From Escherichia coli (GTDB lineage Bacteria > Pseudomonadota > Gammaproteobacteria > Enterobacterales > Enterobacteriaceae), in the NCBI RefSeq assembly GCF_001677475.2, contig NZ_CP015229.1: DNA of 64,000 nucleotides. One strand, 5' to 3'. The notes beneath the pieces were generated by a model. It was not told the origin of the DNA. It did no database searches and saw only the letters and a program-made list of their open reading frames with translations. The stretch's first letter is position 1; each line of letters starts with the position of its first letter. Positions 3,196 to 48,711 of the stretch are shown here, in pieces. Both the position numbers and the translations under genes were made by a program.

Positions 3196-3574
3196 AATAA
3201 ATAGTATCCTGAAGGTGCATGTTGTTATCGATTTGCAACAAATGTTGTTCGATGTTGCAAACTGATAACCTTTTATTTTCACTTGGGAGAAAGGGGGGCG
3301 ATCGAGGTATATCTTTTTCTCCTTTCGCTATACATCCTAAGGAGTATTGCAGCGTGAAATTTTGATTTATTTCACATAGAGTTAGTGGTTTTTTATTTAT
3401 TTAATGGTTTTAAGTTTTTTAATTAATGTAATTACGAAATGACCCGCAGGTTTAAGTGATTTAATTGATTTAATGAATAAAATTTGCCACGATTATATTT
3501 AATATCTATGTATTTTGATTCAACATTTTAATTACATTCGTCAAAGAGGCTCGGGACAACCCGCAAGGAAAACA
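3196..3574. promoter_or_regulatory. divergent citC / dpiB control region, very AT-rich with tandem GATTTAAT motifs
   Basis: 379-bp non-coding spacer between divergently oriented citC and dpiB; AT-rich by eye, contains tgatttaattgatttaatgaat around 3456..3480. Confidence 0.4.
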
Positions 3575-21917: not shown

Positions 21918-22949
21918 TCAACCGTCGATAAATACGTCCGCCAGGGGTTTATGGCACAACAGAAGAGATAACCCTTCCAGCTCTGCCCACACTGACTGAC
22001 CGTAATCTTGTTTGAGGGTGAGTTCCGTTCGTGTCAGGAGTTGCACGGCCTGACGTAACTGCGGCTGGCTTAAGCGATTTAACGCCTCGCCCATCATGCC
22101 CCGGCGGTTCTGCCATACCCGATGCTTATCAAACAACGCACGCAGTGGCGTATGGGCAGACTGGCGTTTCAGGTTAACCAGTAACAACAGTTCACGTTGT
22201 AATGTGCGCAACAAAATAACCGGCTCGCTGCCTTCCAGACGCAGTTGCTGAAGAATGTGCAATGCGCGCTTGCTTTTGCCCATCAACAAAGCATCGACCC
22301 AATGAAAAGGGGTGAAATGCGCGGCATCATTCACTGCCTGCTCAACGCGCGGTAATGTCAGTTTGCCGTCCGGCCAGAGAAGCGATAAACGCTCCAGCGC
22401 CTGTGCCAGCGCCAGCAGGTTACCTTCATAACAATAGCAGAGCATCTGATTTGCAGCGTCATCCAGTTCTAAGTTGAGCTGTTTTGCACGCGCAGCAACC
22501 CAGCGAGGAAGCTGAGCCTGCTCCGGTGTCTGACAGGTTACCTGCACGCTTCGATTAGCAAGAGCAGTAAACCAGGCAGCATTTTCCTGCGCTTTGCTTA
22601 ATTTATTGCCGCGCACGATCAGCAGCAAATCGTCATGCAGCAGTCCGGTCAGTGTCAGAAGTTGGTCATTGATCGCCGCATTTGGTCCGTTTTCTGGTAA
22701 CAGCAGCAATAGCGTTTGTCGACTGGCGAACAGGCTCATGGCCTGGCATAGCGAAAATATCGCATTCCAGTCGGTGTTGGGATCAATGGAAAAAGTGTGG
22801 TGTTCTGCAAATCCTTGTGCTGCAGCTACCTGACGAACAGCGTCCTGGCTTTCCTGCAACAACAGAGGATCGTTACCAAGCAAAAGATACGCCGCGCGCA
22901 GCCCTTCATTGAGCTGCGCGCGGAGTTGTTCCGGGTACAACCGAATCAT
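21918..22949 (-). CDS. holA: DNA polymerase III delta subunit
   Basis: 343-aa [36 protein letters not shown]...; start overlaps the lptE stop by 1 nt. Confidence 0.95.
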
Positions 22950-23527
22950 CAGTTACCCAGCGTAGTAGAGACGCGTGCAGGCGTTGCTGCAGTATCCGTT
23001 GTTTTCGACGTATCTTCGTCGGAACGGATATCCGCAGCGCGGATGCTTGGCAGCTTACGTATCAGCTGTTCGGCAGCACGGTCGTACATCTCTTGAATGA
23101 TCATGCTTTGCTCATTATCTTTCGCTAACGCCATTTGCGGGTTATCGAAGAACGAACGGAAGACTTTGGCGCTAATCGGGTAGATGTCACGGCCAGGGAT
23201 CAATACTGACGCGCTGACAGTCATCACCATTTGATATTCAGCGGTTTGACCATTACGGAAAACTGAAGCGGTATCCTGGGAGATTGATACAGCACCCAAA
23301 CGCAGGGATGGAACATCCTTACGCGTGGTTTCTTTATCAAGCAACTCAACACCGTTCAGACGCAACTGATTACGCACCGCACGGCTTAACGGCCCGTTCG
23401 GGTCGCCAGAGTCCAGGATCATGACCTTCATAGTGGAAGGAACCTGCGTGGTATCACGCAGATGCCAGCCACACCCGGCGGTGATTAACACCGCCAGAGA
23501 TAACAACAATGTTGCCAGATATCGCAC
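22949..23527 (-). CDS. lptE: LPS-assembly lipoprotein LptE
   Basis: 192-aa [31 protein letters not shown]... (lipobox ITAGC). Confidence 0.95.
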
Positions 23528-23541
23528 GCTTCCTCCCGCGC

Positions 23542-26124
23542 TTAGCCAACGACCAGATTGAGGAGTTTACCCGGTACGTAAATCACTTTACGCACGGTAA
23601 CGCCATCAAGATATTTTGCTACCAGATGTTCCTGGCCAGCACGTTCGCGAACCTGTTCTTCCGTTGCATCTACCGGAACGGTGATTTTGGCACGGACTTT
23701 ACCGTTAACCTGCACCACCACCAGCGTGGAATCTTCCACCATCGCTTTCTCGTCTGCAACCGGCCACGGCGCGTTGTCGATATCGCCTTCGCCTTTCAGT
23801 TCCTGCCACAGCGTGAAGCAGATGTGCGGCGTGAACGGGTTAAGCATACGAACAACGGCCAGCAGGGCTTCCTGCATCAGCGCGCGATCCTGCTCACCAT
23901 CGGTCGGTGCTTTTGCCAGTTTGTTCATCAGCTCCATAATCGCCGCAATTGCAGTGTTAAAGGTCTGACGACGACCGATATCATCGGTCACTTTAGCGAT
24001 AGTTTTATGAACATCACGACGCAGAGCTTTCTGATCTTCAGTCAGTGCGTCAACGTTCAGCGCCGCAACATCACCTTTCGCAGTGTGCTCGTAAACCAGT
24101 TTCCAGACACGTTTCAGGAAGCGGTTAGCCCCTTCAACGCCGGACTCCTGCCATTCGAGAGTCATATCCGCCGGAGAAGCGAACATCATAAACAGACGAA
24201 CGGTGTCCGCGCCGTAACGTTCAACCATCACCTGCGGGTCGATACCGTTGTTCTTCGACTTAGACATTTTGCTCATGCCGGTATACACCAGTTCATGGCC
24301 TGCCGCGTCTTTCGCTTTCACGATACGGCCTTTCTCGTCGCGCTCAACGATAGCATCAACCGGGGAAACCCAGTTACGTTCGCCGTTTTCGCCTACATAG
24401 TAGAAGGCATCTGCCAGCACCATCCCCTGACACAGCAGCTGTTTCGCTGGCTCGTCAGAGTTCACCATGCCTGCATCACGCATCAGTTTGTGGAAGAAGC
24501 GGAAGTAGAGCAGGTGCATGATGGCGTGTTCGATACCACCAATGTAGATATCCACTGGCAGCCAGTAGTTAGCTGCTTTGGAATCCAGCATACCCTCTTT
24601 GTACTCCGGGCAAGTGTAGCGCGCATAGTACCAGGAGGACTCCATAAAGGTGTCGAAAGTATCGGTTTCACGCAGTGCCGGCATACCATTAACGGTGGTT
24701 TTCGCCCACTCAGGATCTGCTTTGATCGGGCTGGTAATACCATCCATTACCACATCTTCCGGCAGGATCACCGGCAACTGGTCGTCCGGAGTAGGCATCA
24801 CAGTGCCGTCCTCCAGCGTCACCATCGGAATCGGTGCGCCCCAGTAACGCTGACGGGAAACACCCCAGTCGCGCAGGCGATAGTTTACTTTACGCTCGCC
24901 AACGCCCATTGCCGTCAATTTGTCGGCAATGGCGTTAAAGGCCGCTTCATGGTCAAGACCGTTGAACTCGCCAGAGTTGAACAGCACGCCTTTTTCAGTC
25001 AGGGCTTGCTGAGAAAGATCTGGCTCAGAGCCGTCAGCTGCCAGGATAACCGGTTTGATATTCAGGCCGTATTTAGAGGCAAACTCGTAGTCGCGCTGGT
25101 CGTGACCCGGAACCGCCATAACTGCGCCCGTGCCGTATTCCATCAATACGAAGTTTGCTGCCCAAACGGGAATTTCTTCGCCCGTTAATGGGTGAACCGC
25201 TTTAAAGCCAGTATCGACGCCTTTTTTCTCCATCGTCGCCATTTCAGCTTCGGCAACTTTGGTGTTACGGCATTCGTCAATAAAGGCCGCCAGTTCAGGA
25301 TTATTTTCCGCCGCTTTCTGCGCCAGCGGATGACCCGCAGCTACCGCCAGGTAGGTACAACCCATAAAGGTGTCCGGGCGGGTAGTGTAAACGGTCAGCG
25401 TGTTGTCATAGTCGTTAACGTTGAAGGTGATCTCCACGCCTTCGGAACGACCGATCCAGTTACGCTGCATGGTTTTAACGGTGTCTGGCCAGTGATCCAG
25501 TTTATCCAGATCGTTGAGCAGCTCGTCAGCGTAAGCGGTGATTTTGATAAACCACTGCGGGATCTCTTTACGCTCAACTTTGGTATCGCAGCGCCAGCAG
25601 CAGCCGTCGATAACTTGTTCGTTCGCCAGTACGGTCTGGTCGTTCGGGCACCAGTTGACCGCAGAAGTCTTCTTATATACCAGGCCTTTTTTATACAGCT
25701 CGGTGAAGAATTTCTGTTCCCAACGGTAGTATTCCGGCGTACAGGTTGCCAGCTCGCGGCTCCAGTCATAACCAAAGCCCAGCATTTTGAGCTGGTTTTT
25801 CATATACGCGATGTTGTCGTACGTCCACGGTGCCGGAGCGGTGTTGTTTTTCACCGCCGCGCCTTCCGCAGGCAGACCAAACGCGTCCCAGCCGATCGGC
25901 TGCAGAACGTTTTTGCCCAGCATGCGCTGGTAACGGGCGATCACGTCACCGATGGTGTAGTTACGTACGTGGCCCATGTGTAGTCGACCAGAAGGATAGG
26001 GAAGCATAGACAGGCAGTAATACTTCTCTTTGCTCTCGTCTTCGGTTACTTCAAATGTGCGCTTCTCATCCCAATGAAGCTGTACTTTGGATTCTATCTC
26101 TTCCGGGCGGTATTGCTCTTGCAT
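23542..26124 (-). CDS. leuS: leucine--tRNA ligase
   Basis: ORF 23542..26148; start at internal Met gives 860 aa [24 protein letters not shown]... with HMGH and KMSKS motifs. Confidence 0.95.
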
Positions 26125-26359
26125 GGCAGCCAGTGGTCCTGTTTTCATTACGGCTACAAAAGTAGCGTTAGAGGTGGTTTTTCAGATCCGCATAGCATAG
26201 CCCAAACGTCCGCGTCAAAACAGCCTTTCGCGCACTCGACGTTGAAATGATGCCCGGATTATTCATACATTAATTTACAGAGTTTGTGGGCGTATTAGCA
26301 AAGCAAGGAACAAAGAACGTCTATTATTATAGTCAGTTAACGACCCGGGAGATGAAACG

Positions 26360-26842
26360 ATGAACAAGGTTGCTCAATATTACCGTGAACTGGTCGCGTC
26401 ACTGAGCGAACGCCTGCGTAATGGCGAACGTGATATCGACGCACTGGTGGAACAGGCGCGCGAGCGCGTAATAAAAACAGGGGAGTTAACGCGAACCGAG
26501 GTCGATGAGCTGACGCGAGCTGTCAGACGTGACCTGGAAGAGTTCGCCATGAGCTATGAAGAGAGCCTGAAAGAAGAATCTGACAGCGTCTTTATGCGGG
26601 TGATTAAAGAAAGCTTATGGCAGGAGCTGGCAGACATCACCGATAAAACGCAGCTTGAATGGCGCGAAGTTTTCCAGGACCTCAATCATCACGGGGTTTA
26701 TCACAGCGGAGAAGTGGTAGGGCTGGGAAATCTGGTCTGCGAGAAATGTCACTTCCATCTCCCAATCTACACACCGGAAGTGCTGACGCTATGCCCGAAA
26801 TGTGGTCATGATCAGTTCCAGAGACGCCCGTTCGAGCCGTAA
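26360..26842 (+). CDS. ybeL: DUF1451 zinc-ribbon protein YbeL
   Basis: 160-aa ORF MNKVAQYYRELVASLSERLRNGERD...; C-terminal CEKC...CPKC pairs. Confidence 0.85.
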   Translation: MNKVAQYYRELVASLSERLRNGERDIDALVEQARERVIKTGELTRTEVDELTRAVRRDLEEFAMSYEESLKEESDSVFMRVIKESLWQELADITDKTQLEWREVFQDLNHHGVYHSGEVVGLGNLVCEKCHFHLPIYTPEVLTLCPKCGHDQFQRRPFEP

Positions 26843-26875
26843 TAGTCTGATTTCGCACAGCAATAAAGAGAATAT

Positions 26876-26908
26876 GGGCCGAATGAAATTCCCCGGCCCT
26901 TGTTTTTA
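26876..26908 (+). terminator. Rho-independent terminator after ybeL
   Basis: gggccgaatgaaattccccggccc hairpin followed by ttgttttta. Confidence 0.6.
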
Positions 26909-26911
26909 TCT

Positions 26912-27895
26912 CTACAGTAAATCTTCAATCTCACGAATTTCTTGACTGACATCTCTGGTTCCGGATGACTGAACTTTACGATACAGGTCGAGAGCCTGTC
27001 GGAGATCGACAGGTCTTCCTTCTCCGTAGTGATACATAATGGCCAGGTTATACCAGGCAGTGGCGTCATTGCATTCAGCGGCTTTCGTAAACCATTCAAA
27101 GGCGGCCTGATAATCTTTCTCAACGCCTTGTCCGTGTTTATACATATAACCGATGTTGACGTAAGCGCCGACGCTCCCCTGAGCGGCAGCCTTCAGATAC
27201 CAGTACATCGCTTGCTTATAGTCCTGGTCCACCCCTTCGCCAGCGTTATAATCCCATGCAATTTGAAACTGAGCATGCCGATTACCCTGCTGTGCGCTTT
27301 TCAAATACCAGAATGCGGCGAGTGTCTCGTTTTGAGCGACGCCTTTTCCGTCTTCATAAAGATCGGCCAGATTGTTTTGCGCGTCACTATGGCCTTGTAA
27401 TGCAGCTTGTTTGTACCAGAAAAATGCCAGCGTATAGTCTTGTGCGACTCCGTTGCCATTTCTGTACATCCACCCAAGATTATTTTGCGCATAAGACATT
27501 CCGCTCTCCGCGGCTATCTGATACCAGGCAACCGCTTCTTTATAGTTGGGGTCTTCTCCACGATCCAGTATCCAGCCAAGGGCGTTGGAAGCGAAAGTAT
27601 GGCCTTGTAGGGCAGCTTTTTTCAGCCAAAAGATGGCTTGCTCATTATCTTTATGACGGCTTTTATCCTCGGAGTATTTCCGCCCTAAGGAATATTGTGC
27701 TTCACAATGGCTTTGCTCAGCGGCCAGCTTCAGCCAGTAAAAGGCCTTTTCGTCGTCCGGAGAGTCAATTGCGCTATCGCGATTATAATAAAACCCAATA
27801 ATATATTGAGCCTCGCAATCGCCTTTTTCAGCACGTTCGATAATCTCATCTATTGATAAATTATCGCAGCAACTTGACGTAAAAATCATTATCAT
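26912..27895 (-). CDS. ybeQ: Sel1-repeat (TPR-like) protein YbeQ
   Basis: 327-aa ORF with repeated A-x-A-Q-x-x-L-G-x-x-Y-x-x-G-x-G-V units; paralogue of ybeT; start could be 6 nt further in. Confidence 0.85.
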   Translation of the reverse strand: MIMIFTSSCCDNLSIDEIIERAEKGDCEAQYIIGFYYNRDSAIDSPDDEKAFYWLKLAAEQSHCEAQYSLGRKYSEDKSRHKDNEQAIFWLKKAALQGHTFASNALGWILDRGEDPNYKEAVAWYQIAAESGMSYAQNNLGWMYRNGNGVAQDYTLAFFWYKQAALQGHSDAQNNLADLYEDGKGVAQNETLAAFWYLKSAQQGNRHAQFQIAWDYNAGEGVDQDYKQAMYWYLKAAAQGSVGAYVNIGYMYKHGQGVEKDYQAAFEWFTKAAECNDATAWYNLAIMYHYGEGRPVDLRQALDLYRKVQSSGTRDVSQEIREIEDLL

Positions 27896-28052
27896 TTCCT
27901 TATGGTTGTAGATAAAACATATTATATTTTTATGTGTTCCATTTTTGCGTAAACCTTATTTTATGCGTATTATGTTGCGTCAGAAAAGTATAAATAAATG
28001 AGCCTCGCAACGTGGTTAATATTCATTGAATGAATATTTAAGGATAAATTAT

Positions 28053-28759
28053 ATGGACATGGAGTCGCAAAAAATATTGTTTGCACTTTCCACTCCGATG
28101 GAAATACGCAATAAATGCTGTTTACCTTCGCATTCATCCCCCAAAATGTATTTAGGTACATGCTTTTTGACCTTTCTTCCTCATGGGGAATTGATGGCCG
28201 TGATGACCTGCTGCGCACAATTCACCGAATGATCGATAACGGTCATGCCGCGCGGTTGGCAGGGCTTTATCACCGCTGGTTTCGTTATTCTCCGTGTGAA
28301 TGGCGTGACTATCTTGCTGAACTAAATGAGCAAGGTCAGGCTTATGCGCAATTTGTCGCCAGCACCGCCGAATGCTGTGGCGAAGGGGGAATCAAAGCCT
28401 GGGATTATGTCCGGATGGGTTTTTTAAGCCGAATGGGCGTACTTAATAACTGGTTGAGCGAAGAAGAAAGTCTATGGATCCAGTCGCGCATTCATCTACG
28501 GGCGCTACGTTATTATAGTAACTGGCAGCAATACTTTGCCGGTTATACCTTTGGTCGGCAATATTGGCAGTCTCCCGAAGATGATAATCTTCAGTTATTA
28601 CGTGAATTCTTAGCGCGTAAAGAATACGACGATTCCGGCAATGATATGTTTTATCAATTATTTGCCAGTGATGATGCGTATTACCCTACCTTGTCCTGGC
28701 AACCATTGGCTTACTATTCTGCATGCCCGGAAACGCTTAAGGATATGAGCGACCTATGA
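28053..28759 (+). pseudogene. ybeR: DUF1266 protein YbeR, disrupted by a -1 frameshift in a T5 tract (28164..28168)
   Basis: Track ORFs 28026..28232 (frame 3) and 28115..28759 (frame 2) together align colinearly with intact paralogue YbeU; a T6 tract would restore one ~235-aa frame. Could be a sequencing error. Confidence 0.7.
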
Positions 28760-30183
28760 AAAATTGCTGGCAGATCCTCGATATATCTCAAACGACTGAC
28801 GTCGATATTATCCGCCGCGCTTATCTGGCGCTGTTACCGTCCTTTCATCCAGAAACCGATCCGCAGGGTTTTAAACAACTTCGTCAGGCGTATGAGGATG
28901 CGCTACGGATTGCGCAGTCGCCTGCTAAATCTGTTTGGCAACCAGAAGAATATGAGGTAGCAGAACATGAAATTCTGCTCGCCTTTCGCGCGTTACTTGC
29001 CTCTGATAGCGAACGTTTTCTGCCCTCCGCCTGGCAGCGATTCATTCAGCAATTAAATTATTGCTCGATGGAAGAGATTGATGAATTACGCTGGTCGCTG
29101 TGCACAATCGCCATGAACACTGCCCATTTATCCTTCGAGTGCGTGGTGTTATTAGCAGAAAGATTGCGGTGGTTGCAGGAGGAAAACGTCGGGGAAATAG
29201 ACGAAGAAGAACTGGAATCCTTTTTATATGCCATTGCGAAGGGGAATGTTTTTAACTTCCAGACCATTCTGCATCTGCACGTTGCCGTGCAAAATGACAC
29301 TATCGATTTTTACCAAATGTTCGCTCGGATTTGGTTATCGCATCCAGAATGGCTGACATTGTATTTAGCGCAACATCGCGCAGTGATTATCCCCGATGAT
29401 GCAAAACTGCACAGAAATTTACTCCGCTGGTATAGCGCAGGTCGCCTGGGAATCCCCGAACTCCTGGATTACGCCCGGTCGTGGCGGGAAGCTGAACCTG
29501 ATAATGAAGATGCGCGTTATTATGAATACGCACAACGCGTCTATTGTGGAGAAGGCGAAAGCTTGCTGGCAGAACTTTGTGACTACTGGCGCGAGTATCC
29601 CTCCACCCAGGCGGATGCTTTAATGTTGCAATGGTGCCGTCAGCATCGGGTCGATTATTACCCGTTAGTGGTGATGATGATTGAAGCTCGTGAACTGGTT
29701 AACGATCAGGGAAAACCGCTACTTTATATCCCCGGCGACAGCGCCCGTACGCGTTTTCATTTATACGAAATACTCAGCGATGAAAAACTCTCTGCTCTGG
29801 GGCGTTCACTGGTCGAGATGGTTTTGCACAAAGGACGTAAGCCGCGAATCTCACTCACGCGTGATACAGAACATCCCTTATGGCCATTATATTTAGTTGC
29901 TAAACAATTAGTTCAGGCCAGCCAACCGACAGAAGAATCATTAATGCCGATTGTGAGCCGCCTTGATGCAGAAGCTCGTTGTCCACTGGAAGCATTAATG
30001 ATTCGTCGATTATTAATTCAGGCGGCAAATTTTACCGAGAAGCAAACCGTCGAACCGGAGCCGCAACCGCAGCCAATGCCCGTTGACGATGGTGGGCCGG
30101 GCTGTCTGGGCGTCATCAAAATTATTTTCTACATTTTTATCTTTGCCGGTTTGATAGGGAAAATACTCCATCTGTTCGGGTGA
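28756..30183 (+). CDS. djlB: J-domain co-chaperone DjlB (YbeS) with C-terminal transmembrane anchor
   Basis: 475-aa ORF; N-terminal J-like domain with HPE in place of HPD (28846..28854); hydrophobic C-tail [20 protein letters not shown]; ATGA overlap with ybeR. Confidence 0.85.
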
Positions 30184-30192
30184 CAGTCGACG

Positions 30193-30747
30193 TTAATGTG
30201 CGGGAAGCCCGGCAAGTAATCTTTCCGCATTTTTGTAATGTTGTTTGGCGGCCAGTTTTAACCATTTTTGAGATTCATAATGGTTAACATTAATACCTGA
30301 GCCATTTCTGTAGATCAAACCCAAAGTATATTGAGCATGAGCATACCCTTGTTCAGCTGCTTCCTTATACCAGAGAATTGCTTTACGGGTATCGGGTTTG
30401 ACCCCCAGACCTTTGAGGTAGATCCACCCCAGTTTACTTTGCGCGCGTGGATTTTCCTGTTCCGCTGATTGCTCATACCAGTATCTCGCCTGTGTATAAT
30501 CCAGTGGTTTACCGTCGCTACCATGAAGATAAAATTCTCCAAGTCGATATTGCGACGTTGAGTGACCATGAATCGCGGAAAGCTCTGTGGCTGCCGTGGT
30601 GAATGGAAGACTGCCCGGTGAGCTTAAATAATCAAAGGCATAATTCGCCATGGCTTTATCACGCAACGTCGTTTTCTTGGGTTGGCTAATACAGGTTATT
30701 GCTGCAACTATAAATATTGCGAATATATACATTAATTTTTTATTCAT
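30193..30747 (-). CDS. ybeT: Sel1-repeat protein YbeT with N-terminal signal/anchor
   Basis: 184-aa [28 protein letters not shown]... followed by Sel1-like repeats. Confidence 0.85.
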
Positions 30748-30848
30748 GTGTGAATACTTCGATTTTCTTTTTATTTTGAAAGCGTCAAGTTTATACTCAT
30801 CAATAATAAAAAAGTAGTCAGTTAATGCACTTAAGGGATTATTAACAA

Positions 30849-31556
30849 ATGAACAAGGAAGAACAATATCTTCTTTTTGCGCTTTCTGCGCCCATGGAAA
30901 TACTTAATCAGGGTTGCAAACCCGCGCATGACTCGCCAAAAATGTATACCGGGATAAAAGAATTCGATCTCTCATCATCCTGGGGAATAAATAATCGTGA
31001 TGATTTAATTCACACTATTTATCAGATGACCGATGATGGTCATGCTAATGATTTAGCTGGCTTATATCTGACATGGCATCGCTCTTCCCCTGAAGAGTGG
31101 AAAGCATTAATTGCTGGCGGCTCGGAGAGAGGGTTGATTTATACCCAATTCGTTGCCCAAACCGCTATGTGTTGTGGGGAAGGGGGAATCAAAGCCTGGG
31201 ATTATGTGCGGATGGGTTTTTTATCACGGGTTGGTGTGCTCAACAAGTGGCTGACGGAAGACGAGAGTTTATGGCTGCAATCGCGCGTCTATATACGAGC
31301 ACACCATTACTATCACAGCTGGATGCACTATTTTTCCGCCTATTCGTTAGGGCGTCTCTACTGGCAATCTTCTCAGTGCGAAGACAACGCTTCGCTACGC
31401 GAGGCGCTAACCCTGTACAAATACGATAGCGCCGGGAGTCGGATGTTCGAAGAGCTGGCAGCGGGAAGCGATCGTTTCTATGCCACGCTTCCCTGGCAGC
31501 CATTAACTGTCCAGCCTGAATGCCCGGTAACGCTTAAGGATGTGAGCGGCCTATGA
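30849..31556 (+). CDS. ybeU: DUF1266 protein YbeU
   Basis: 235-aa [36 protein letters not shown]...; paralogue of ybeR. Confidence 0.85.
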
Positions 31557-33004
31557 AAACATGTTGGCAAATCCTCGAAATTGAAAGCACGACGCAAATA
31601 GACATTATCCGCCAGGCTTATCTTGCTCGCTTACCGTTGTGTCATCCCGAAACCGATCCGCAGGGGTTTAAAGCATTACGCCAGGCCTATGAAGAGGCGC
31701 TGCGACTGGCGGTAAATCCTGTCGAGGAAGCAGATAATGAAGAAAAAGATGCCACCGCTGAACATGAAATACTACGAGCATTCAGGACATTACTGGATTC
31801 AGAAAGTGATCGTTTTCAGCCCTCCGCCTGGCAGAAATTTATTCAGCAATTAAATACCTGGAACATGGAGGATGTCGATCAATTACGCTGGCCGCTGTGT
31901 GCAATCGCTATAGAAGCGCGATATCTTTCATTAAATTGTGCTTCTTTGCTGGCAGAGCGTTTGAACTGGCATTCGTTTAATGACAGCGAAGGAATGGATG
32001 AGGAAGAAAGGGAGGCTTTTCTTGAGGCCATTCAGGCTGGTGATTGTTTCGATTTCCTTAGCCTTCTGGAATATCCCGTCGCGTTGCAGAACCAGACTGT
32101 TGAGTATTACTTCGCGCTGGAACGCTGCTGCCGTTACCATCCCGACTATGTCACTGCGTTTATGGCAATGGAAGGTCCGTGGTTCATTCCTGATGATGTC
32201 AAGTTACATCGCAAACTGTTGCGCTGGTACAGCTCGGTGAAAACAGGTATGGCGGAACTCATTCCTGTTGCCCAACAGTGGCAAGCAGAAGAACCAGAAA
32301 GCGAAGATGCCCGTTATTACCAGTGTGCGCAACGGTTGTACTGTGGCGAGGGGGAAAGCCTGCTTGCCGATCTCTGCGCATACCGGGAGAGTTACCCATC
32401 TACACAAGCCGATAATTTGTTGTTGCAGTGGAGCAAGCGTCATTGCCCGGATTATTTCGCGCTGTTAGTGATGGTTATCGAAGCGCAGAGCATGGTTGAT
32501 GCGCAAGGTCAACCGTTGAAATATGTTCCTGGTGAGAGCGCCCGGACGCGGCTGTTATGGGCGGAAATTTTACATAGCGGAAAATTATCGCCGTTAGGTC
32601 AATCGTTTATTGAGTCGTTATTCTTCAAGCGCAAAGCATGGGCGTGGTGGAAATCGAGAGTCGGTAGCGAGACAGAACAAGATTCACCGTTACTGGATTT
32701 GTATCGGGTAGCGGAACAGGTTGTGCTGGAAGCGTTCCCGAAACAAGAGATGCTGGCCCGTCTTAATACAAGGCTGGAAGGTGGAGATGCTCATCCATTA
32801 GAGGCCATTATCACCCGGATGCTGTTGACGAAAGTGAAACTCGAGCCGGAGGATGAAGATGTCGATGAGACAACACCTGAAAACCACGAAGAAATAAATG
32901 ATGAGGATGAAAAACCACAGAGCATTACCAGCATTATCAAAATCAGCTTAACGGTGCTGGTGATAGGTTATGCTCTCGGAAAAATCGCGATGTTGTTTAG
33001 CTGA
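31553..33004 (+). CDS. djlC: J-domain co-chaperone DjlC (YbeV) with C-terminal transmembrane anchor
   Basis: 483-aa ORF paralogous to DjlB; HPE at 31643..31651; acidic region then hydrophobic tail [18 protein letters not shown]; ATGA overlap with ybeU. Confidence 0.85.
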
Positions 33005-33019
33005 GGAAGTGTTTTTTGC

Positions 33020-33043
33020 GCCGATGCCGGATGCAGCGTTTAT
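33020..33043. repeat. left half of a REP-like palindromic unit split by the IS insertion
   Basis: gccgatgccggatgcagcgtttat; its inverted partner gccgcatccggcagccg lies at 34480..34496 on the far side of the IS. Confidence 0.6.
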
Positions 33044-33566
33044 TGAACTGCACCCCAAATGTTGGACATAATCTGACATCTGAAGGTGCAGTTTATGAAA
33101 CATTCATTTGAAGTAAAACTTGCCGCTGTAAATCATTACCTGGCTGGTCATGCAGGCATCATTTCTACGGCAAAACTCTTTCAACTTTCTCACACCAGCC
33201 TCTCACACTGGATTAATCTTTTTCTTCTTCACGGTCCTCGGGCACTGGATTGCAGACACAAGCGTAGCTATTCTCCTGAAGATAAACTTTGCGTGGTTCT
33301 TTATGCTCTCGGGCATTCTGAGTCTCTACCCCGGGTAGCTGCCCGGTTTAACATTCCCAGCCACAACACGGTTAAAAACTGGATAAAAGGCTACCGCAAA
33401 TCTGGTAATGAGGCCTTTATCAGGCGCAGGAAGGAGAAAAGCATGACCCGTTCTGATGATACCCATGAAAACGAGGCAAACATGACGCCGGAAGAGATGA
33501 AGAATGAGCTGCGTTATCTTCGCGCAGAAAATGCATATCTGAAAGCCATGCAGGAGCATCTCCTGG

Positions 33567-34477
<911 letters not shown>

Positions 34478-40524: not shown

Positions 40525-40842
40525 ATCCAACTCCTTTATCTTCTGCGTTAAGAACGCATGGATACCTGTTGTGAGTGTTTGTGTTGTTATCATCTGCAAC
40601 TTTATTGTGCAGTGTTGTGCCTGTTAGGTAACATTTAGTTTGGCTAAATGTAAAGATATTGCTGTTTTATTGTTTGTTTTTGCGAGTTGCGCCGCACCAT
40701 TCCGAAGCAAAATTCTTAAAATGCACTCTTTTGGTGCTACCCGTGGATTGCTGTGGTGCAACCGGGTTGTACTGATGCTGGTTCACGCTTTGCCTTGTAT
40801 AACAAAGCAATAGATGTGCCAAAGTTGGATAGGGGAATTTTG

Positions 40843-40880
40843 TTATCCGGATAACGCACTGATGCCGCATCCGGTGAGCG
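40843..40880. repeat. REP-like palindromic element in the lnt-gltI spacer
   Basis: gttatccggataacgcactgatgccgcatccggtgagcg; GCCGGATGCGGCG-type palindrome. Confidence 0.5.
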
Positions 40881-40920
40881 TGCCGAAATACGGGATGTAT
40901 TCCGGCACGATAAGAAGGGA

Positions 40921-42459
40921 TTATTTACGTCGTTGACGCAGACTCATCAGCACAGCAGCAAAACCAAACAGCGCCGTAAGCACCCACAGCGGCCAGTTGC
41001 CGGTACGTGCGTACGGTGTGAGTCCGGTGGTCGGCGTCACGTTAGTGGTTAACACCTCGCGGGTGAACTGCGGGATCATCGCCTGAATCTCACCCTGCGG
41101 ACCAATCACCGCCGTAATGCCGTTGTTGGTGCTACGCAGCAGTGGGCGCGCCAGCTCCAGCGCACGCATTCGCGCCATCTGGAAGTGTTGCCATGGACCA
41201 ATAGATTTACCAAACCACGCATCGTTGGAGATAGTCAGCAGGTAGTCGGTATCCGGGCGGAAGTTATCACGCACTTGCTCGCCGAGAATGATCTCGTAGC
41301 AAATAGCCGCAGTAAGCTCAATACCGTTTACCGACAGCGGCGGCTGGATATATGGCCCACGGCTGAACGACGACATCGGTAGATCAAAGAACGGTGCTAA
41401 CGGACGCAGAATCGACTCCAGCGGGACAAACTCGCCAAACGGCACCAGATGGTTTTTGTTATAGCGATCGGCTGATTCGTAGCTGTACGGCGCACCTTTA
41501 CCCAGCGTGATGATGGTGTTGTAGGTATCGTAGCGGTTCTGCTTATTGAGACGTGCGTCAACAATCCCGGTTACCAGCGAGCTACCTTTATCGCGCAACT
41601 CACCGTCCAGTGCTTTGAGGAACGGTTGCTGATTAATTTCCAGATCGGTTATCGCCGACTCCGGCCAGATAATCAACGATGATTTGCCCATCAGCGGTGC
41701 CGTTGCGTTGTAGTAAATCTTCAGCGTATTAAGAAGCTGGTCTCCGTCCCATTTCAGTGATTGCGGAATATCGCCCTGAACCATCGAAACCTGAATGGTT
41801 TTCTCCGGTTGCGGGGTAAACCACTGGATGTAACGCAGCGGGAAGGGAAGGGCGAACAGCACGACGGCCACCACCATCGGACGCCAGTTGCGTTTGACCA
41901 ACGCCAGTGCCAGCAGGCCGCTAACCATCATTAGCAGGAAGTTAATGGCTTCCACGCCCATTATCGGTGCCAGCCCTTTTAACGGGCCATCAATCTGGCT
42001 ATAGCCGAACTGTAACCACGGGAAACCAGTCAGCACCCAACCGCGCAGAAACTCGGTCACTTGCCAGAGAGCAGGGGCGGCAATCGCCACGCGCAGCCAG
42101 GTGGTTTTCGGCCACAGACGCGACAGCACGCCAGCAAACAGTCCGGTATACAGCGACAAATACGCCGCCAGCAGCACCACCAGGAAGATGTTAACCGGGC
42201 CAGGCATTCCGCCAAAGGTCGCGATGCTGACATAGACCCAGTTAATACCGCTGCCAAAGAGGCCAAATCCCCAGCAAAAGCCAATAGCGGCAGACTGGAG
42301 TGGACGGCGGTTAAAGGTCAGCGCCTGAAGCCCCATCAGCGAAATAATCGCCGCAGGCCAGACGTCGTAAGGAGAGAAGGCCAGCGTTCCGCAGGCACCG
42401 AATAATAACGCCAGCAGCAGGCGAATGCGCTGGCGTTCAATTAATGAGGCAAAAGCCAT
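40921..42459 (-). CDS. lnt: apolipoprotein N-acyltransferase
   Basis: 512-aa [31 protein letters not shown]... with C-terminal CN-hydrolase domain. Confidence 0.95.
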
Positions 42460-48007: not shown

Positions 48008-48082
48008 TGGCTGGGGTACGAGGATTCGAACCTCGGAATGCCGGAATCAGAATCCGGTGCCTTACCGCTTGGCGATACCCCA
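48008..48082 (-). tRNA. glnX: tRNA-Gln (anticodon CUG)
   Basis: 75-nt minus-strand sequence UGGGGUAUCGCCAAGCGGUAAGGCACCGGAUUCUGAUUCCGG...CCA; anticodon loop UUCUGAU. Confidence 0.9.
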
Positions 48083-48119
48083 ACTGGGTGCACTTACGAT
48101 GTAAGCGTCTTGAATAAAT

Positions 48120-48194
48120 TGGCTGGGGTACGAGGATTCGAACCTCGGAATGCCGGAATCAGAATCCGGTGCCTTACCGCTTGGCGATACCCCA
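48120..48194 (-). tRNA. glnV: tRNA-Gln (anticodon CUG), tandem copy
   Basis: Identical 75-nt sequence to 48008..48082. Confidence 0.9.
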
Positions 48195-48242
48195 ACAAAT
48201 TGGTTTGTGAATTTGCCGAACTTATTCGACACATTCAGAATT

Positions 48243-48319
48243 TGGTGGCTACGACGGGATTCGAACCTGTGACCCCATCATTATGAGTGATGTGCTCTAA
48301 CCAACTGAGCTACGTAGCC
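48243..48319 (-). tRNA. metU: elongator tRNA-Met (anticodon CAU)
   Basis: 77 nt GGCUACGUAGCUCAGUUGGUUAGAGCACAUCACUCAUAAUGAUGGGGUCACAGGUUCGAAUCCCGUCGUAGCCACCA. Confidence 0.9.
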
Positions 48320-48334
48320 AGATTGTTTCTTCGA

Positions 48335-48409
48335 TGGCTGGGGTACCTGGATTCGAACCAGGGAATGCCGGTATCAAAAACCGGTGCCTTACCGCTTGGC
48401 GATACCCCA
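48335..48409 (-). tRNA. glnW: tRNA-Gln (anticodon UUG)
   Basis: 75 nt; anticodon loop UUUUGAU. Confidence 0.9.
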
Positions 48410-48443
48410 ATAACCGGGCGGTGAACCGCTTACTCGAAGAAGA

Positions 48444-48518
48444 TGGCTGGGGTACCTGGATTCGAACCAGGGAATGCCGGTATCAAAAACCGGTGCCTTA
48501 CCGCTTGGCGATACCCCA
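48444..48518 (-). tRNA. glnU: tRNA-Gln (anticodon UUG), tandem copy
   Basis: Identical 75-nt sequence to 48335..48409. Confidence 0.9.
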
Positions 48519-48541
48519 TCCGTACAACGCTTTCTGGTGAA

Positions 48542-48626
48542 TGGTGCGGGAGGCGAGACTTGAACTCGCACACCTTGCGGCGCCAGAACCTAAATCTGGT
48601 GCGTCTACCAATTTCGCCACTCCCGC
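48542..48626 (-). tRNA. leuW: tRNA-Leu (anticodon UAG)
   Basis: 85 nt GCGGGAGUGGCGAAAUUGGUAGACGCACCAGAUUUAGGUUCUGG... with long variable arm. Confidence 0.9.
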
Positions 48627-48634
48627 AAAAAAGA

Positions 48635-48711
48635 TGGTGGCTACGACGGGATTCGAACCTGTGACCCCATCATTATGAGTGATGTGCTCTAACCAACTGA
48701 GCTACGTAGCC
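48635..48711 (-). tRNA. metT: elongator tRNA-Met (anticodon CAU), second copy
   Basis: Identical 77-nt sequence to 48243..48319. Confidence 0.9.

Follow-up and report, generated by a model that had tools for sequence, protein, structure and literature searches.

The window, a stretch of 64,000 nucleotides of Escherichia coli DNA, contains ybeR in its usual surroundings, the gene order being leuS, ybeL, ybeQ, ybeR, djlB, ybeT, ybeU and djlC, with ybeQ and ybeT on the minus strand. The part between 26912 and 33004, which adjoins hscC, consists of two tandem copies of a three-gene module, ybeQ/ybeR/djlB and ybeT/ybeU/djlC. Each module has a minus-strand Sel1-repeat gene, followed by a DUF1266 gene and a J-domain gene that overlap by ATGA. 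In the first module, the stop codon of ybeR and the start codon of djlB overlap at 28756-28759, and ybeU and djlC overlap likewise at 31553-31556. The overlap suggests, as far as the sequence can tell, that the translation of djlB is coupled to that of ybeR. In this DNA, ybeR is divided between two reading frames, which meet at a short run of T. The features of the locus are as follows.

26912-27889, minus strand: ybeQ, an intact gene of a Sel1-repeat protein, divergent from ybeR
28053-28232, plus strand: the 5' fragment of ybeR, with 38 authentic codons (M1-F38), 21 out-of-frame codons and a premature TGA at 28230-28232; the predicted product has 59 amino acids
28164-28168, plus strand: the T5 homopolymer, site of the 1-bp deletion, identified by alignments and allele-specific probes; intact alleles have T6, which encodes Phe38-Phe39 (TTT TTT)
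28166-28759, plus strand: the 3' remainder of ybeR in the other frame, FDLSSSWGI...MSDL, with the stop codon TGA at 28757-28759; it holds the whole Pfam DUF1266 domain
28756-30183, plus strand: djlB, a J-domain co-chaperone gene, the exact protein of which (P0016) is catalogued as a J domain-containing protein
30849-31556, plus strand: ybeU, the intact DUF1266 paralogue, 59% identical to the restored YbeR without gaps

The start of ybeR is the ATG at 28053, with which the annotated ATG of the orthologues aligns; the list of open reading frames gives 28026-28232 for the same frame. Translation from this ATG yields MDMESQKILFALSTPMEIRNKCCLPSHSSPKMYLGTCF (…SPKMYLGTCF), comprising 38 authentic residues, and then continues out of frame as LTFLPHGELMAVMTCCAQFTE. 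The T5 run, read directly from the window, occupies exactly positions 28164-28168 in the context GGTACATGC-TTTTT-GACCTTTC. The second frame is open from 28166 up to the TGA at 28757-28759 without a break. The Pfam profile PF06889 (DUF1266) matches residues 41-216 of the intact orthologue with E = 3.2e-46, and the break in ybeR falls just upstream of the whole of this domain. Three ATG codons, at 28115, 28160 and 28229, are put in frame with the DUF1266 part by the frameshift. In other assemblies carrying T5, gene callers choose a 214-amino acid ORF that starts at the first of them (28115-28756), and its product is flagged PF06889. The last of the three overlaps with the premature TGA in the sequence AATGA at 28229-28232, where it encodes the Met of …HRMIDNG… in the DUF1266 frame. 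This arrangement resembles a termination-reinitiation overlap and is probably a coincidence.

The ybeR region matches the annotated ybeR ("DUF1266 domain-containing protein") of thousands of complete E. coli genomes, and in the best matches 731 nucleotides of the query cover 732 nucleotides of the record. The alignment of these 731 nucleotides with ybeR of strain GF4-3 and of K-12 ER1709 contains a single gap, which is located in the T run: both references have T6 and the window has T5. The first-pass annotation had attributed the break in ybeR to a 1-bp change within a poly-T tract, and the alignment bears this out. The same annotation had predicted that T6 would restore one ORF, and this is the case. 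Adding one T in silico results in an uninterrupted ORF of 235 amino acids, which is identical, residue for residue, to a catalogued E. coli protein (P0017) present on 22-29 contigs. A full-length intact orthologue of ybeR therefore exists, the disrupted copy aligns with it over its whole length, and the indel, being of 1 bp and not a multiple of three, leads to a premature TGA 21 codons after the shift. The alignment of the restored YbeR with YbeU runs without a gap across the junction, so that the two paralogues are indeed colinear at this point, and, with ybeU intact, only one of the two DUF1266 copies is affected, both as had been claimed.

T5 in intact orthologues had been named in the first-pass annotation as an observation that would speak against a broken gene. 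It does occur, in a trivial form only, in one intact YbeR allele (P0005) that has Leu at residue 38, reading GTCLFDL in place of the GTCFFDL of other alleles. Most likely, the first base of the T6 run has changed from T to C in this allele, which leaves a T5 run in frame and keeps the length of the gene.

The intact ybeR (b0645) of K-12 lies in a locus, ybeQ-ybeR-djlB / ybeT-ybeU-djlC / hscC, that resembles the window in the gene itself, its neighbours and their order, the sequence being 98-99% identical. The window differs from it in having T5 instead of T6 at codons 38-39. Another difference from the K-12 locus, shared with GF131, is an IS1397-like element between djlC and hscC.

The T5 allele is present in two further NCBI assemblies. 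Contig NJSK01000029.1 of GCA_002516285.1 (L004) is 100% identical to positions 22115-33106 of the window and GCA_033729275.1 (L007) is 100% identical to positions 22849-33597, T5 included in both cases; the identity extends over 10.7-11.0 kb. L007 has no gene product listed between ybeQ and djlB, which is the expected outcome of a pseudogene call. The exact product of the 214-amino acid downstream ORF is recorded from both NCBI and Logan sources, on six contigs. Since this product is possible only with T5, its catalogue record attests the allele in other data, including Logan assemblies. Both draft contigs stop inside or beside the IS element that the window crosses, which indicates that the window was assembled separately. 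It could derive from the same isolate as one of the drafts, and there could then be as few as two truly independent isolates.

The closest relatives of these sequences with an intact gene are GCA_019141245.1 (L008, L009) and the Logan assembly of ERR10434848 (L010). Over 14-15 kb, no more than 3-4 substitutions separate them from the window, and both have T6 and an intact ybeR of 235 amino acids. There is no difference among the three T5 loci examined (those of the window, L004 and L007), all of which have G at position 31549 of the window, where both T6 relatives examined have A. The identity of the T5 loci and the absence of their variant at 31549 from the T6 relatives point to a single event. 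The index of the collection lists 44 blocks with the djlB allele of the window, and at most of the places inspected the neighbouring proteins are those of the intact-ybeR locus.

The window is 99.97-100% identical to several draft assemblies. The closest complete RefSeq E. coli genome is 97.6% identical over 24 kb and 98.2% identical in the flanks, and the lineage is thus without a close match in the complete RefSeq E. coli set searched. The catalogued identical proteins are all labelled Escherichia coli. In GenBank, DjlB of the window is ANO87835.1 and YbeU is ANO87837.1; there is no ANO accession among the four listed for the intact YbeR. The most economical reading of these sequences is that a single recent deletion of one T has been inherited by one clone of a lineage that otherwise keeps ybeR.

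We are confident, on the strength of these comparisons, that ybeR carries a recent, clonally inherited 1-bp deletion (T6 to T5) in codons 38-39 in one sub-lineage of E. coli, and that it is a frameshift pseudogene. The first-pass annotation had left three options open. Real pseudogenisation is the one supported, by T5 in other assemblies and T6 in near-identical relatives; sequencing error and slipped-strand switching, both discussed below, did not hold up.

The likely cause of the deletion would be replication slippage, in which one T of the short homopolymer is dropped. Translation from the native start of ybeR would then change frame after Phe38 and end 21 codons further on, at 28230-28232, and the conserved N-terminal segment would be cut off from the whole DUF1266 domain. 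The T5 allele is most likely null, judging from the predicted products. Ribosomes would terminate about 525 nt upstream of the djlB start, which may abolish the coupling or cause polarity, and in either way the expression of djlB is probably lowered.

The T5 allele of ybeR is an ordinary, textbook lineage-specific frameshift pseudogene of a known kind. As in the lineage-specific frameshift pseudogenes of E. coli and Shigella, which are labelled 'frameshifted' by PGAP, a one-base deletion in a mononucleotide run creates a premature stop codon, intact full-length orthologues are found in near-identical relatives, and the protein is absent from the listed products, here those of L007. Nothing substantive sets ybeR apart from them.

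The loss of ybeR is probably tolerated owing to the duplication of the module, the second copy of which, ybeT-ybeU-djlC, is intact, and this is also indicated by the disruption of ybeR in some other E. coli. In several complete E. coli genomes (H21-H24), an IS1 insertion splits ybeR into two annotated DUF1266 fragments. The ybeR query is covered to at least 80% at one place in 3,803 of the 5,426 complete E. coli genomes, and about 1,000 of the 5,426 have no match to it. The IS1 insertions and the missing matches indicate that ybeR has been disrupted independently by other routes. These findings fit a gene that is under weak selection and whose loss is tolerated.

Literature searches on ybeR and DUF1266 returned nothing on function or on the T5 allele, and what they did return was background of a general kind on HscC, DjlB and DjlC (PMC8215388). 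These three proteins are below the detection limit in quantitative proteomics of exponentially growing cells, and deletion of their genes has been linked to Cd2+ sensitivity only (PMC8215388). Scans of YbeR, DjlB, YbeU, YbeQ and YbeT with PADLOC and NCBIfam gave no meaningful match. The two Sel1-repeat proteins have weak PADLOC/NCBIfam matches to PtuA, in which no stretch passes alone, and these are regarded as spurious.

An alternative to a null allele is that T5 still gives a functional product, either wild-type YbeR by -1 slippage or a DUF1266-only protein by initiation or reinitiation at the ATG codons at 28160 or 28229. If the ribosome or the RNA polymerase slipped by -1 at C TTT TTG, the product would be ...C F F D..., as in the wild type. 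Furthermore, the ATG at 28160 (MLFDLSS…) opens a frame that contains the entire Pfam domain, and a further ATG of this frame overlaps with the premature stop (AATGA, 28229-28232). Nevertheless, we consider a functional product very unlikely. The zero-frame heptamer is C TTT TTG, whereas the canonical one is X XXY YYZ, and the 92 nucleotides downstream (28169-28260) fold like shuffled sequence (z = -0.30), which leaves no stimulatory structure in this interval. The two-frame arrangement is used by no other E. coli examined, every orthologue examined being single-frame with T6. Programmed frameshifting is rejected on the absence of both the canonical heptamer and the downstream structure.

The only Shine-Dalgarno-like sequence, AGG, is located 2-3 nt 5' of the ATG at 28160, which is too close, and a DUF1266-only protein would lack an N-terminal segment of 38 residues that is conserved in both paralogues. 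YbeR and YbeU are identical at 22 of these 38 residues (a hand count from the alignment), about as in the whole protein (59%), which suggests that the segment is needed. A truncated product initiated at 28160 or at the AATGA overlap may yet be made. A more elaborate proposal is that the T5 allele is hypomorphic or remodelled, by rare -1 slippage or as a DUF1266-only protein, and not dead, and that together with a weaker coupling to djlB it retunes the HscC/DjlB module; this we regard as highly improbable.

Slipped-strand switching would make the T tract a contingency locus, with ybeR turned ON and OFF and perhaps the coupled djlB with it. Like the contingency loci of Haemophilus, Neisseria and Campylobacter, the frame of ybeR is broken by a change in homopolymer length close to the 5' end of the gene, and the ON length, T6, is found in very close relatives. 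In the known contingency loci, a mononucleotide tract usually has at least 8 nt. The tract of ybeR, with T5 here and T6 when intact, is just 5-6 nt, far shorter than in those genera. The window contains 32 T6 and 22 A6 runs (54 in all), which makes the ybeR tract unremarkable as a mutational target.

The occurrence of other tract lengths was examined with allele-specific probes of 46-48 nt, in which every 28-mer megablast seed spans the T run, so that each probe seeds on its own allele only. In a local control with dust filtering on, the T5 probe matched the window, L004 and L007 only, and the T6 probe matched T6 loci only. Neither the T5-specific nor the T7-specific probe had a match in the 5,426 complete E. 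coli genomes. A T6 57-mer is present exactly in 1,555 of them and at 95-99% identity in 1,535 more (about 3,090 together), and the sampled rows all span 57 nt. Three sampled genomes differ from the 57-mer by an A-to-C substitution 15 nt 3' of the run (the CTCCTGG class), which still leaves usable 28-mers for the probes. Where SNPs flank the run both 5' and 3', as in GF131, the probes do not seed; this probably applies to the majority of the 109 genomes that fall into the 90-95% identity band. In a pattern scan of the GTDB species representatives, neither T5 nor T6 with exact flanks had a match. The wider population thus lacks the variant lengths that are found at contingency loci, and the T5 loci, unlike such loci, are identical and have in common the variant at 31549, which is missing from the two T6 relatives. 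Phase variation is rejected because the tract is short and because the 5,426 genomes gave neither a T5 nor a T7 allele, and the chance that the tract is a contingency locus is, in our view, slim in the extreme.

There remains the question of accuracy of the assembly. All indels between the window and GF131, which align over 98% of the 64 kb, were listed and checked against the annotations. In this aligned part, the deletion in ybeR is the only frame-breaking indel in coding sequence. Five other differences in homopolymer length, at 3293, 10532, 48627, 48715 and 59283, are all intergenic. The pattern fits an accurate assembly of a sequence under purifying selection. Errors in homopolymers would hit genes as well, and with the differences elsewhere being intergenic, sequencing error is excluded for practical purposes. 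Assemblies made from long reads only often miscall homopolymers by one base, the window may be of long-read origin as it spans the IS element at which the drafts break, and the best complete RefSeq E. coli genome is only about 97.6-98.2% identical to it; all the same, the chance that T5 is an error of sequencing or assembly in a strain that truly has T6 and an intact ybeR is next to negligible, and this explanation is rejected, given the identical T5 in two other NCBI assemblies, the T5-specific ORF product in Logan and the lack of any other coding frameshift in the aligned part of the window.

As a frameshift pseudogene that arose by a real deletion, ybeR of the window merits annotation as such, and not 'correction' as a sequencing error. 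The T5 allele marks one clone in a lineage of E. coli that has no close counterpart among the complete RefSeq genomes searched, and it is a minor additional indication that one of the two copies of the Sel1/DUF1266/J-domain module beside hscC is dispensable. A strain that is naturally ybeR-null and its near-isogenic T6 relatives form a convenient pair for studies of DUF1266 or DjlB. Beyond correct annotation, the importance of the allele is very small.

Several other features of the window were noted in the comparison with GF131. The IS1397-like element between djlC and hscC, at 33086-34444, belongs to the IS3 family and its site is shared with GF131. Its orfB transposase gene has a CAG-to-TAG nonsense mutation at about 33847 in the window (…RKLMQ*LGLKS, compared with …RKLMQQLGLKS in GF131), and by reason of this codon the window copy is probably inactive. 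In drafts of this lineage the assembly is interrupted at the element or inside it. The tRNA cluster Gln-Gln-Met-Gln-Gln-Leu-Met on the minus strand (48008-48711) has seven genes, compared with six annotated in GF131, owing to an additional copy of tRNA-Gln(ttg); the cluster is flanked by differences in homopolymer length, A6/A7 and T7/T8. Between gltI and lnt, the window is without the gene of a rhomboid-family intramembrane protease, of about 1.9 kb, that is found in GF131, and has about 167 bp of unaligned sequence (40770-40936) in its place. In lptE, at 23012, there is an in-frame length difference of 3 bp, the gene having 192 codons in the window and 193 in GF131.
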